Below, in pieces: positions 10,719 to 13,652 of a DNA stretch of 14,391 bases. The notes under the pieces were generated by a model. It saw only the letters and a program-made list of their open reading frames with translations. It was not told where the DNA came from and ran no database searches. This DNA is from a virus. Lineage: Duplodnaviria > Heunggongvirae > Uroviricota > Caudoviricetes. How positions within the stretch are numbered: the first letter of the stretch is position 1; each line of letters starts with the position of its first letter. Where the stretch lies: IMG/VR virus record IMGVR_UViG_2675903650_000028. One strand, 5' to 3'. The translations under genes and the position numbers were made by a program.

Positions 10719-11141
10719 ATGAAAATGACTGAATTAACAAAAGAACAATTAATCGAAGAAGCCAAATTAAAAATAGCGATTACGAAATGCCACCCCAATT
10801 CAGGGATGGCGCGAGTAGAGGGCGAGTTATTCAAAATTGCACTGGCATCGCTGGAAGCAGAGCCGATAGCGTGGCGATATCGCTACGTGAAAAAAGGTGT
10901 TATGGACTCTCAGGGGGAGTTGTGGGTTGGTGACTGGAAATATGTACCGAAAAAAGAGGATTGTAACGACAGGCCGAACTATGAAATTCAGGCCTTATTC
11001 ACTGCCCCACCAGTCCCGGTTACATCAGAAGAACTGGTTAAAGCTGTGCACTTTTATGAACAACTAAAACGCGAAAATCCACCAGCATCCGGCAACCAGA
11101 TTAATGGGTTAACTATGCCGGTTAAACGACCAGCCGACTGA
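10719..11141 (+). CDS. Hypothetical protein (140 aa)
   Basis: ORF after a 90-bp structured intergenic gap; alternative start at ATG 10725. Confidence 0.6.
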   Translation: MKMTELTKEQLIEEAKLKIAITKCHPNSGMARVEGELFKIALASLEAEPIAWRYRYVKKGVMDSQGELWVGDWKYVPKKEDCNDRPNYEIQALFTAPPVPVTSEELVKAVHFYEQLKRENPPASGNQINGLTMPVKRPAD

Positions 11142-11352
11142 AAAACGGAAACCTGATTACAGATTCCCAGATAAGGCAATGAGCTACCTGGCGTAGAGTG
11201 GGCTGATAAGTATGGGGAATGTTTTACGATGAATACTTAGACTAAAGAGTTTGTAACGCTATGTAAGTGATTTTTTCTGGTTTAGATATTTATATGTCCG
11301 GCCAAATTGAGGTGTGTTTAAATGTAATTGCACATTGATTGTAGGGGGAATA

Positions 11353-11532
11353 ATGAAAAACGCATTGCAGTTTTTGTTTGTTGCGTTCTGGTTGTTCGCA
11401 TCATGTATGCCCATCATCTTCACAGCAAGGTATATGGAAAAAATTGATGTTTTGATATTAATGTTTGGACATATAAATGCCCTTTTTTTAGGGGTGTTCA
11501 TGGCGGTCACGTGCATTGAATACTGGCGGTAA
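11353..11532 (+). CDS. Small putative membrane protein (59 aa, two hydrophobic segments)
   Basis: Internal ATG 11353 preceded by AGGGGGA. Hydrophobic stretches ALQFLFVAFWLFASCMPIIF and IDVLILMFGHINALFLGVFMAVTCI. Sits in an AT-rich segment. Confidence 0.5.
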   Translation: MKNALQFLFVAFWLFASCMPIIFTARYMEKIDVLILMFGHINALFLGVFMAVTCIEYWR

Positions 11533-11587
11533 ATACAGCGAACGCTATTGGTTTAGTTGGATATTTACTGTGCCGGACAAAAACGGT

Positions 11588-11615
11588 TTGCAGGGAAATC
11601 TTAGTTAAGTAGAAT
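11588..11615 (+). promoter_or_regulatory. Putative hok mRNA promoter (TTGCAG-16 nt-TAGAAT)
   Basis: Read directly from sequence. Would start the transcript near 11622, giving a message of about 415 nt to the terminator at 12036. Confidence 0.45.
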
Positions 11616-11684
11616 GACTGTGGGTGCTTGAGGCTATCTGTCTCAGGCATGAACACCAAAAGGCAGATAGAGAAAAGCCCCAGT

Positions 11685-11743
11685 TAACATTACGCGTCCT
11701 GCAAGACGCTTAACATTAATCTGAGGCTCAATCCATGCTGAAC
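11685..11743 (-). ncRNA. Putative Sok-like antisense RNA (approximate)
   Basis: Minus-strand promoter-like TTGCCT-17 nt-TAACCT (plus coordinates 11778-11750). The transcript would be complementary to the SD and start of the upstream in-frame ORF (ATG 11735) and would contain hairpin GCGUC-UUGCAG-GACGC (11693-11708). About 60 nt. Confidence 0.3.
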
Positions 11744-11791
11744 ACATGTAGGTTAGCCTCTTACGTGCCGAAAGGCAAGGAGAAGCAGGCT

Positions 11792-11947
11792 ATGAAGCAG
11801 CAAAAGGCGATGTTAATCGCCCTTATCGTCATCTGTTTAACCGTCATAGTGACGGCACTGGTAACGAGGAAAGACCTCTGCGAGGTACGAATTCGAACCG
11901 GCCAGACGGAGGTCGCTGTCTTCACAGCTTACGAACCTGAGGAGTAA
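11792..11947 (+). CDS. hokD: Hok-family type I toxin (HokD/RelF-like)
   Basis: 51-aa product MKQQKAMLIALIVICLTVIVTALVTRKDLCEVRIRTGQTEVAVFTAYEPEE: Hok signature with one transmembrane helix and CEV.IRTGQTEVAVF. An in-frame upstream start at 11735 gives the 70-aa track ORF (mok-like; not resolved). Confidence 0.85.
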   Translation: MKQQKAMLIALIVICLTVIVTALVTRKDLCEVRIRTGQTEVAVFTAYEPEE

Positions 11948-12015
11948 GAGACCCAGCGGGGGAGAAATCCCTCGCCGCCTCTGATGTGTCAGGCATCCTC
12001 AACGCACCCGCACTT

Positions 12016-12036
12016 AACCCGCTTCGGCGGGTTTTT
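12016..12036 (+). terminator. Intrinsic terminator (AACCCGC-UUCG-GCGGGUU + U5) ending the hok transcript
   Basis: GC-rich stem with UUCG tetraloop and T-run, read from sequence. Confidence 0.8.
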
Positions 12037-12162: not shown

Positions 12163-12342
12163 ATGAGCTGCCCACTCAAAAAACACACGCGGTTGAGTAT
12201 TCCGCCTCGCGATAAAAGCGTTGTGGCAGTCCCTCGCCCAGTGATTGATGAAAACTGCGCACATCGTGAACAAGTGAAAAATGCTTTTGATTTCGGTTTT
12301 TCTCGTTATGAGAAAGCCATGGAAGAACTTTCAAAAGTGTAA
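12163..12342 (+). CDS. Small protein upstream of the Doc-family toxin (candidate antitoxin, unclassified)
   Basis: 59 codons from ATG 12163 with AAGGA SD 9 nt upstream; the track ORF starts at GTG 12115. Its stop lies 10-19 nt before the toxin start. No Phd/YefM-like motif recognised. Confidence 0.45.
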   Translation: MSCPLKKHTRLSIPPRDKSVVAVPRPVIDENCAHREQVKNAFDFGFSRYEKAMEELSKV

Positions 12343-12351
12343 TGATGGGTA

Positions 12352-12846
12352 TTGTACTCTATGGCTGAGATTGTTGAAGGAGTGCATTACCTTACGGTTG
12401 ATGATCTTGTTGAAATCAATCATTCCCTAATTGAATTACAGACGCCAGATGAGCCCGTTGGTGTTCTGAGTCCAGATAACTTAAGTTCTTCTCAGGCCCG
12501 TCCCAGCATGGTTCGATGGTATGAACAGACTAATGACATGTTTGTACTGGCATCGGTATTGATTGAAAGTCTGATTCAGAATCATCCGTTTGCTAATGCG
12601 AACAAACGAACAGCTATGATGGCTGGTTACGTCTTCTTGTTGTTGAATGGCTATGAGTTAACAGCACCAGGCGATGAAATCGTGGAAATGGCAGAGGGAC
12701 TGGCCTGCAAAACCTATACTCGAGAAGATCTCGAGAACTGGTTGTGTTATTGGTCTCGCGCGTATGACAGCCGGGAATTATGTAAAACAAGCGCAACTAT
12801 TGTTTTGTATGAAACTATCAAGCTTAAAATAGAACAGCAAAACTAA
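12352..12846 (+). CDS. Doc-family (Fic/Doc) toxin
   Basis: Motif HPFANANKRTA matches the Doc-type H-x-F-x-(D/N)-(A/G)-N-K-R signature. Start is ambiguous (TTG 12352 or ATG 12361) and has a weak SD. Confidence 0.7.
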   Translation: MYSMAEIVEGVHYLTVDDLVEINHSLIELQTPDEPVGVLSPDNLSSSQARPSMVRWYEQTNDMFVLASVLIESLIQNHPFANANKRTAMMAGYVFLLLNGYELTAPGDEIVEMAEGLACKTYTREDLENWLCYWSRAYDSRELCKTSATIVLYETIKLKIEQQN

Positions 12847-12860
12847 AGGTGCTTCCAATG

Positions 12861-12886
12861 AAAACCCGCTTCGGCGGGTTTTTTAT
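12861..12886 (+). terminator. Intrinsic terminator, second copy of the 20-nt hairpin found at 12016-12036
   Basis: AACCCGCTTCGGCGGGTTTT occurs identically at 12016-12035 and 12863-12882; here it is followed by a longer T-run. Confidence 0.8.
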
Positions 12887-12965: not shown

Positions 12966-13046
12966 CGATGCACTTAAGTAGCGCGCAGGGAGAAGAGGGA
13001 TGGACCCCAAACAGGGGAGTGCTATTTATCTGGAAGGATTCTGTTG

Positions 13047-13307
13047 ATGAAAATCAAAGAATTACGTGAAATTTTTAGTGAAGATGGCCTCTATACTGTG
13101 CGCGTTGAGAATGGCGCAATTGTCAGCCACTGCCGTATTAAATGTTTACAGTCTCAACAAAGGAAGAGTGGAGCTGCGTTAATTCATTTGGTGGATGGGC
13201 TTGTGACGGATGGTTTTATTTTGCGTGCAAATGAATTTGTCACATCGTTGCCGTCTCTGAAAGAAGCTGGGATTAAGGCTGGTTTTTCTGCTTTTGAAGA
13301 TGAGTGA
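13047..13307 (+). CDS. Hypothetical small protein (86 aa), Rem-like by position
   Basis: ATG 13047 with GGAAGGA SD (the track starts at TTG 13044). In Qin the gene after hokD is rem (83 aa); the sequence itself is not confidently recalled. Confidence 0.55.
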   Translation: MKIKELREIFSEDGLYTVRVENGAIVSHCRIKCLQSQQRKSGAALIHLVDGLVTDGFILRANEFVTSLPSLKEAGIKAGFSAFEDE

Positions 13308-13373: not shown

Positions 13374-13652
13374 ATGGCGCAAAATTCCAGACTACACAAT
13401 TCTGATAATTCAGCCGCCTTTGCCAGCAGGCACGGGCGGCGCTCTCATGCATTCAAATATGACTGGTATCAGCACGATCCCTGCACCGAAGAACAGGCTG
13501 AATGGCTGATTCAGCGCTACCGCAGACACGGATACGAGATTAAGAAAGCCCTCAGCCTCGATTATCGTCTCTGGATAATCTACGTCAGACTCCCTTATTC
13601 CGAACGCCCACCGCGTCCGTCCCGCACATTCCAGCAACGCATCTGGAGGTAA
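13374..13652 (+). CDS. Hypothetical protein (92 aa)
   Basis: GGAGA SD 6 nt upstream. Stop TAA (13650-13652) lies 1 nt before the GTG of the next ORF. Confidence 0.5.
   Translation: MAQNSRLHNSDNSAAFASRHGRRSHAFKYDWYQHDPCTEEQAEWLIQRYRRHGYEIKKALSLDYRLWIIYVRLPYSERPPRPSRTFQQRIWR

Follow-up and report, generated by a model that had tools for sequence, protein, structure and literature searches.

Evidence for an intact hok/mok/sok module of the hokD/hokW subfamily in a lambdoid prophage of Escherichia coli

Loci of the hok/sok type have been familiar for decades. In E. coli K-12 the hokD gene (relF) of the Qin prophage stands behind a second toxin-antitoxin pair, in the order relB, relE, hokD, rem and ydfU. 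A hok gene also occurs in a stretch of 14,391 nucleotides of viral DNA (Caudoviricetes; IMG/VR record IMGVR_UViG_2675903650_000028), referred to here as the window. A sequence-only reading of this DNA contrasted it with the K-12 order and described the window copy as a complete, self-contained locus, possibly the intact ancestral form. The locus raises the question of whether its parts make up a whole toxin-antitoxin module and how such a module is related to K-12 hokD.

The segment from 11588 to 12036 very probably holds an intact type I toxin-antitoxin module, hok/mok/sok, which belongs to the hokD/hokW subfamily and has early genes of a Qin/Rac-like lambdoid E. coli prophage as its neighbours. 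It contains a promoter, a 5' translational activator element (tac), a mok frame, the hok gene, a 3' fold-back inhibition element (fbi), a terminator and a convergent antisense (Sok) gene; the elements listed in the earlier reading were all found where it had placed them (Table 1). The locus is 99.8% identical to a segment of the chromosome of strain E300082 (NZ_CM128602), where it lies in a lambdoid prophage. The locus type is already known: it is annotated as hokD in RefSeq, and hokW-sokW is its near-identical, experimentally characterised counterpart.

Table 1. Features of the hok/mok/sok locus, in window coordinates
Feature	Position	Strand	Description
hok promoter	-35 11588-11593; -10 11610-11615	+	TTGCAG, 16-nt spacer, TAGAAT; from sequence, consensus scan and homologs
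Predicted full-length hok mRNA	11622-12036	+	415 nt; starts at the conserved 5' GGG and includes the whole terminator U-run
tac	11622-11633	+	GGGUGCUUGAGG (DNA GGGTGCTTGAGG); pairs with fbi
Sok-like antisense RNA (predicted)	11673-11743	-	about 71 nt; coordinates transferred from sokW in NC_000924
mok-like frame	11735-11947	+	70 codons; Shine-Dalgarno GAGG 11723-11726; in frame with hok
sok promoter	-35 11778 to 11773; -10 11755 to 11750	-	TTGCCT, 17-nt spacer, TAACCT, in minus-strand reading
Upstream box ("ucb")	11758-11764	+	CUCUUAC; pairs with 11944-11950; also lies in the sok promoter spacer
hok toxin gene (HokD)	11792-11947	+	51 aa; Shine-Dalgarno GGAG 11779-11782; stop codon 11945-11947
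Small hairpin	11925-11939	+	CAG/CUG stem with UACGAA in the loop; TadA-type A-to-I editing site
Downstream box ("dcb")	11944-11950	+	GUAAGAG; overlaps the hok stop codon; pairs with 11758-11764
GC-rich 3' stem-loop	11956-11975	+	between the hok stop codon and fbi; forms in the minimum free energy (MFE) fold
fbi	11997-12009	+	CCUCAACGCACCC (DNA CCTCAACGCACCC); complementary to tac
Intrinsic terminator of hok mRNA	12016-12036	+	AACCCGCUUCGGCGGGUUUUU (DNA AACCCGCTTCGGCGGGTTTTT); hairpin and U-run in the MFE fold

The hok gene, its transcript and the mok frame

The leader of the hok mRNA carries the conserved sequence and structure of the family, as it matches Rfam RF01794 (sok) at 11622-11797 over the full model (positions 1-157 of 157) with 118.9 bits against a gathering score of 59. 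No other Rfam family was found in the whole window. This full-length match, the presence of all regulatory elements and their conservation in homologs bear out the earlier description of a complete and self-contained hok/sok-type locus. Assignment to the hokD/hokW prophage subfamily follows from high DNA identity, from the extension of the Sok/target hairpin and from the position of the locus between early genes of a lambdoid prophage.

The reading had also given hok a promoter of its own, TTGCAG-16-TAGAAT, and this is present as stated and can be read directly from the sequence. A consensus scan reports the same promoter in another register, with TTTGCA (11587-11592), a 17-nt spacer and TAGAAT. 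A -10-like hexamer lies exactly 6 nt 5' of a conserved GGG in 33 of 33 related loci, and the hok -10 is the same in phage 933W. In uninduced lysogens of the Stx2 phage Sp5, hokW mRNA has been detected (PMC8621323). The transcript would begin at 11622, the position at which the Rfam sok model starts and at which an alignment of 33 homologs starts with the same GGG. Folding of the predicted 415-nt RNA gave an MFE of -167.7 kcal/mol compared with a mean of -124.2 for shuffled sequences (z = -7.8). The 5' element is followed on the plus strand by a leader of about 170 nt. The terminator at the other end has the same sequence in K-12 hokD. A terminator scan did not list this copy at 12016-12036 and listed an identical second copy at 12860-12883; the first copy, like the sok promoter described below, was accepted on comparative and experimental grounds and not on a consensus scan.

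The toxin matches Pfam HOK_GEF (PF01848) with 82.9 bits against a cut-off of 22. Its translation is identical to K-12 HokD, and the same RefSeq protein, WP_000813254.1, stands in the K-12 and E300082 records. HokD is toxic on overexpression (bioRxiv 10.1101/2025.08.07.668861). The toxin gene is overlapped by the upstream mok-like frame, which has its own Shine-Dalgarno sequence and whose first 19 residues, MLNTCRLASYVPKGKEKQA, are those of annotated MokW. By analogy with homologs, translation of hok would be coupled to that of mok. The mok ATG is kept in 32 of 34 aligned loci and is in frame with hok in 24 of them; the earlier reading did not mention that the two share a frame in the window, a minor omission.

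Near the 3' end of the hok coding sequence, the editing codon is Tyr47 (TAC, 11930-11932), which A-to-I editing would recode from Tyr to Cys. The TACGAA motif is invariant in the 34 loci and the stem that flanks it covaries (CG in 19 and UA in 14; GC in 22 and AU in 10). In K-12, hokD mRNA has been reported to be edited at 6% (PMC12214031).

Predicted long-range pairing in the hok mRNA

Fold-back pairing between the two ends of the mRNA had been proposed from their complementarity. Folding of the transcript 11622-12036 agrees with this proposal: tac and fbi form 12 of 12 pairs in the MFE fold, with a single bulged C at 12003, and each pair has an ensemble probability of 0.97-1.00. The duplex has an energy of -21.5 kcal/mol; among 307 other segments of 89 nt taken from the window, none gave a duplex as strong. 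When 2038 other 14-mers of the window were paired with the 3' UTR, the only one to equal tac was one that overlaps tac itself.

Related loci were collected by scanning one genome per species with a single Hok protein, which gave 53 loci from Escherichia, Shigella, Kluyvera, Citrobacter, Pseudocitrobacter, Pantoea, Photorhabdus, Erwinia and others. Almost every related locus with a preserved 5' region has tac at a constant spacing from the hok ATG, mostly at about -141 to -170, and the best 3' partner lies 45-56 nt past the stop codon in 41 of 43 scored loci. Both spacings are seen in Escherichia, Shigella, Kluyvera, Citrobacter, Pseudocitrobacter, Pantoea and Photorhabdus. The two elements have changed together. 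GGGUGC/GCACCC has become GGGCGC/GCGCCC in Photorhabdus and Pantoea (U:A to C:G), GAGG/CCUC has become GAGA/UCUC in Kluyvera, and in Citrobacter the same GAGG/CCUC has become GAAG/CUUC (G:C to A:U in both genera). Such compensation, which preserves the regulatory pairings from genus to genus, implies that the RNA is under selection.

RNAalifold analysis of a 34-sequence alignment independently recovered the end-pairing, a 5' hairpin, the Sok-target hairpin, the helix between upstream and downstream boxes, the 3' stem-loop and the small hairpin around the invariant UACGAA. In the consensus structure, standard pairs occupied 98.1% of cells, compared with 37-46% when partners were slid by 1-3 columns, and 16 pairs had changed on both sides compared with 2-8; the slid control is somewhat generous, as the structure came from the alignment on which it was counted. 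None of 500 shuffles reached the observed value for pairing, and none of 500 reached that for changes on both sides.

These comparisons bear on a rival view, in which an ordinary small gene happens by chance to be surrounded by 5'-3' complementarity and an antisense promoter. A consensus promoter scan by itself is not significant (1 site against 0.8 expected), and shuffles of the GC-rich 3' UTR equalled the duplex energy in 33 of 2000 trials (1.65%), as a chance origin would allow. Against this, 34 loci share both the pairing and its position and show compensatory changes in it, the Rfam match is full-length, and the antisense promoter has the very sequence of the sokW promoter that was mutated in experiments. 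The homolog positions and compensatory changes, together with the chance controls, led to the rejection of tac-fbi as a chance complement; the comparative data effectively refute the view as a whole, and its probability is close to nil.

Other long-range contacts are predicted in the same RNA. The helix between the upstream and downstream boxes is present in the MFE fold of the window RNA and in the RNAalifold consensus (columns 141-147 with 328-336). It is paired in 100% of cells in the 34 sequences and is nearly invariant, so that it offers no covariation. In the full-length RNA, coding sequence further downstream pairs with the hok start region. The GC-rich 3' stem-loop (helix 12 of the alignment) is paired in 97% of cells and has compensatory changes in 2 pairs. 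By analogy with the R1 model (PMC1635323), it is likely to be the roadblock that halts 3' trimming.

Folding of 3'-truncated mRNAs ending at 11979-11990 did not reproduce, in the MFE structures, a pairing of tac with the upstream box. The 5' end instead paired locally with AAAGCCCC at 11675-11681 or with 11640-11648, and forcing tac onto 11755-11760 in the upstream box of the truncated RNA cost about 7 kcal/mol. Judged by these folds, the proposed refolding step is the weakest link of the analysis.

The antisense RNA, its relatives and the likely role of the module

The antisense promoter that had been thought plausible is present and is identical to the sokW promoter. It precedes a G at 11743, is the same in 933W and keeps its position across the 34 loci. 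A consensus promoter scan of the window did not pick it up, because its -10, TAACCT, agrees with the consensus at only 3 of 6 positions. From the mutagenesis primers, the -10 destroyed in order to silence sokW (PMC8621323) appears to be this same hexamer. sokW has been seen by Northern blot with a probe (PMC8621323) that we read as matching the sense strand of the window at about 11713-11742. The RNA predicted from this promoter would be a cis-antisense Sok with complementarity to the mok region, covering the mok Shine-Dalgarno sequence and start codon. Its predicted fold has a single-stranded 5' tail of 13-14 nt (GUUCAGCAUGGAUU), followed by a long hairpin and, at the 3' end, CUUUU. One nucleotide of the apical loop sets this RNA apart from sokW. 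The length of roughly 60 nt first suggested for it was not borne out, since the 71-nt sokW maps exactly to 11743 to 11673, which gives about 71 nt here. The estimate was too short. The subfamily has an extension of 18-20 nt in the Sok/target hairpin, which is common to the window, 933W and Kluyvera loci and is lacking in the hokC type.

Alignment with known systems, which the reading had proposed as a check, revealed the same ordered elements in the window, 933W hokW, K-12 hokC and the IncFII R1-type locus. The closest is hokW/mokW/sokW of the Stx2 phages 933W and Sp5 (VT2-Sakai), annotated in the 933W record, with 93% DNA identity over 95% of the locus. The sok promoter, tac and fbi are identical in the two, as is the Mok N-terminus, which is in frame with hok. 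Both loci follow an ead/Ea22-like gene and a short unnamed ORF in the same direction in a lambdoid phage. They differ at the Hok C-terminus (VFTAYEPEE in the window, VFVDYESEK in HokW), and 933W diverges right after fbi and lacks the CCCGCTTCGGCGGG terminator. Judged by flanking genes, the window copy follows replication genes whereas the 933W copy is near the end of the linear record. Related loci are present in 110 records of sequenced phages, among them 933W, VT2-Sakai, Stx1 phages and P1-like phages; identity to phage loci is 93-96%.

The hokC/mokC/sokC (gef) locus has the same element order and a mok in frame with hok, and its toxin is 82% identical to the window Hok. The first 9 nt of annotated sokC (GUUCAGCAU) are those of the predicted Sok 5' tail in the window. 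sokC is annotated with 59 nt compared with about 71 nt in the window, because the hokC type lacks the hairpin extension. The K-12 hokC alignment stops where the annotated IS186 begins, before fbi. R1 hok/sok (parB) and its IncF relatives share with the window the 5' GGCGCUUGAGGCU, the AGCCCC box, the mok Shine-Dalgarno sequence and ATG, AGCCUCUUAC, the CAAGGAGAAG hok Shine-Dalgarno sequence, UACGAA and the 3' AAGCGCC fold-back partner. The R1-type Hok, whose sequence was confirmed at 100% in plasmids, is only 39% identical to the window toxin. The R1 mok is out of frame with hok, as read from the printed sequence and not computed, and R1 Sok has 64 nt; unlike the window copy, the R1 locus resides on a plasmid, where it brings about post-segregational killing.

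A mode of action can be proposed with R1 (PMC1635323) and the hokW-sokW experiments (PMC8621323) as templates. The hok promoter would produce a stable mRNA of about 415 nt in which tac is locked to fbi and in which the upstream box and the region of the hok start likewise have partners downstream, so that the locked RNA would be neither translated nor bound by Sok. Slow 3' trimming as far as the GC-rich stem-loop would then, by analogy with homologs, remove fbi and allow the 5' region to refold. Ribosomes would start at mok and, reading in the hok frame, open hok for translation. The weak convergent promoter would meanwhile supply the unstable Sok over the mok ribosome-binding site and start codon, which would block translation and lead to cleavage of the duplex by RNase III. 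Once Sok is no longer produced, the 51-aa HokD would be made, insert into the inner membrane and kill or lyse the cell.

The experiments in Sp5 suggest when this would happen. HokW is toxic, and sokW made from its own promoter is the antitoxin, with contributions of RNase III and Hfq; sokW is lost after mitomycin C in a RecA-dependent manner (PMC8621323). HokW reaches the inner membrane and appears about 1 h before endolysin, and deletion of the locus delayed growth arrest and halved phage release (PMC8621323). By analogy, the trigger in the window is most likely prophage induction, as in hokW-sokW, where the module speeds lysis and about doubles phage release. How prophage induction turns Sok off is the question that the locus touches.

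A complete structure does not guarantee activity. The C-terminal difference between HokD and HokW and the poor consensus match of the sok -10 also speak against the proposed mode of action. In a recent preprint (bioRxiv 10.1101/2025.08.07.668861), the intact chromosomal hokA and hokC of other E. coli strains and K-12 hokB are described as giving neither post-segregational killing nor a response to rifampicin. The window locus could likewise be a complete but physiologically silent passenger that is transcribed and never releases enough Hok, as the reported silence of several chromosomal hok loci and the weakness of the sok and hok promoters by consensus would allow. We consider this quite improbable, given that hokW-sokW, at 93% identity, is functional in the prophage to which it belongs, that compensatory changes across genera imply selection on the RNA and that the toxin is HokD, which is toxic when expressed.

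For an active module, a lysis-assisting role as in Sp5 appears most likely by analogy, with prophage stabilisation or phage exclusion as non-exclusive alternatives. That killing of prophage-losing cells or abortion of infection by other phages is the main role, and not help in lysis, is a somewhat unlikely alternative. It draws on R1 hok/sok, which stabilises plasmids by post-segregational killing (PMC1635323) and which, as cited in PMC8621323, lowered T4 plating by 42%. hok genes are also about four-fold enriched in prophages (bioRxiv 10.1101/2025.08.07.668861), and the flanks of hokD gather toxin-antitoxin cassettes, namely relBE in K-12, Doc in the window and Doc with a RelE/ParE-type pair in O104:H4. 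However, the sole direct test of a near-identical prophage copy gave a lysis and release phenotype, and hok is not enriched near defence systems (bioRxiv 10.1101/2025.08.07.668861). The sequence separates none of these roles, which are not mutually exclusive.

The direction of hok is that of the upstream early genes (cro, replication genes and an ead-like gene) in the window and that of the ead/Ea22-like genes in 933W. No plus-strand terminator-like site was found in the scanned stretch of about 1 kb upstream, between 10600 and the hok promoter. Once derepressed, transcription of the early genes would therefore pass through the locus and meet the weak sok promoter head-on. A joint proposal, that the module senses prophage induction by such transcriptional interference and that the hok terminator hairpin is a landing site for toxin-antitoxin cassettes, is tentative and rather doubtful. 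If true, transcriptional interference would explain the RecA-dependent disappearance of sokW.

K-12 hokD and the prophage context

The absence of relBE, noted in the earlier reading, agrees with the 99.8%-identical E300082 record, in which none is annotated. The 51-aa toxin is identical in the window and K-12 Qin, the two are near-identical from the hok Shine-Dalgarno sequence through the terminator, and the downstream genes are syntenic (rem-like, ydfU/DUF968 and Q). In the alignment, K-12 homology to the window starts only at about 11778, at AGGAGAAGCAGGCT, just after relE, which stands in place of everything upstream. K-12 therefore lacks the hok promoter, tac, the Sok target, the mok start, the upstream box and the sok -10; it retains the hok Shine-Dalgarno sequence, the coding sequence, the downstream box, fbi and the terminator. 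In K-12, hokD shares a transcript with relBE (PMC5120126).

Among 5426 complete E. coli genomes, 3826 (about 70%) have the 501-nt intact locus over 80% or more of its length, and 1165 have the K-12-type relE-hokD junction; the intact form is thus about three times commoner. A statement in PMC6379469, which cites Ramisetty and Santhosh (2016), has it that integration of relBE cut an ancestral hokD frame of about 70 codons to 51. K-12 hokD is a 5'-truncated copy, and it is reasonable to regard the window locus as the ancestral intact form. The suggestion made from the sequence is sustained by the greater frequency of the intact form and by an architecture common to loci in other genera, and it is already in print. 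A "novel ancestral form" was rejected in view of the 933W annotation, Takada 2021 (PMC8621323) and the relBE-truncation statement in PMC6379469. With the relBE-hokD arrangement of K-12 as a derived, truncated state, intact copies are better suited to work on the regulation of hokD, including A-to-I editing.

The annotated genes of the E300082 prophage are, in order, integrase, excisionase, exonuclease, dicB, ydfC and ydfB, followed by a cI-like repressor, cro, ydaT, replication genes and an ead/Ea22-like gene. These are followed by hokD, a Doc-family toxin pair, DUF968, rusA, Q and the lysis and terminase genes. A Pfam scan gave no match for the neighbouring small ORFs at 10719-11141, 11353-11532, 13044-13307 and 13374-13652, nor for the candidate Doc antitoxin at 12163-12342. 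In the window, the Doc/Fic-family toxin-antitoxin cassette that follows the hok terminator occupies 847 bp between two perfect 21-nt copies of that terminator. The Doc cassette is present in 125 genomes. K-12, which differs from the window in lacking this cassette, has one terminator copy, as does phage vB_EcoS-640R1, also without the Doc cassette. E. coli O104:H4 has the same bracketed Doc arrangement and a further toxin-antitoxin pair.

Prophage setting and Doc-family cassette

The whole window (L001) belongs to a Qin/Rac-like lambdoid prophage, of which it forms the left half; integrase, excisionase, exonuclease, dicB, ydfC/ydfB, a cI-like repressor, cro, ydaT and replication genes are retained. 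The prophage appears to be related to the cryptic Qin prophage of K-12 but less decayed.

A perfect 21-nt direct repeat, AACCCGCTTCGGCGGGTTTTT, whose sequence is that of the hok terminator, is present in two copies that enclose an 847-bp cassette containing a small ORF and a Fic/DOC-family toxin gene. K-12 and phage vB_EcoS-640R1 each have one copy of the repeat and no Doc cassette. The cassette was present in only 125 of 5426 complete E. coli genomes. In E. coli O104:H4 2009EL-2071 it likewise lies 3' of hokD and is flanked by two copies of the hairpin, with an HTH + RelE/ParE pair next after it. The flanks of hokD resemble a landing pad for toxin-antitoxin cassettes.

The Hok protein scan also returned hokD at 96–100% protein identity on contigs of only 275 to 2995 bases from assemblies labeled Acinetobacter idrijaensis, Xanthomonas pisi and a 'Candidatus Scatousia' MAG (loci L020, L025 and L058). 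These most likely represent E. coli DNA contamination or mis-binning and not genuine occurrences.

Positions of features in and around the hok locus
Feature	Window position	Strand
ORF preceding terminator-like hairpin	10719-11141	
Terminator-like hairpin	11146-11169	minus
Unannotated ORF, 59 codons	11353-11532	
Insertion in Sok hairpin	11690-11709 (alignment A2 columns 73-92)	
First 9 nt of predicted Sok 5' tail	11735-11743	minus
Hairpin with UACGAA loop	11925-11939	
Tyr47 codon (TAC)	11930-11932	
21-nt repeat, first copy	12016-12036	
Small ORF of cassette	12163-12342	
Fic/DOC-family toxin gene	12352-12846	
21-nt repeat, second copy	12863-12883	

Region upstream of the hok promoter

An unannotated ORF encoding a hydrophobic peptide, MKNALQFLFVAFWLFASCMPIIF..., is found in the AT-rich spacer (GC about 0.36) that separates the hok promoter from the ead-side genes. 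This ORF gave no match in a Pfam scan and has no corresponding CDS in a 99.8%-identical RefSeq record. The minus-strand terminator-like hairpin is located directly downstream of the ORF at 10719-11141. The terminator scan found no plus-strand terminator-like sites from 10600 to the hok promoter, and read-through from the early operon into hok is therefore plausible.

Sok RNA and the Tyr47 codon

The 5' tail of the predicted Sok starts with the same 9 nt, GUUCAGCAU, as annotated K-12 sokC (positions 553-611 of record L003), because both mok frames start with ATGCTGAAC. Sok RNAs from different hok loci within one cell might therefore recognize each other's targets or one another's loci. In the hokD/hokW and Kluyvera loci, an insertion of 18–20 nt lengthens the Sok/target hairpin and forms its own covarying stem (CGCGUCC...GGACGCG), whereas the hokC-type and Photorhabdus loci are without it. 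The insertion accounts for a Sok of 71 nt versus 59 nt for annotated sokC.

Within hok, a hairpin with a covarying stem and a UACGAA loop that was invariant among the 34 aligned hok loci contains the Tyr47 codon in its loop. The loop matches a TadA-type A-to-I editing site, and editing at this codon would recode Tyr to Cys. In K-12, 6% editing of the hokD mRNA has been reported (PMC12214031).
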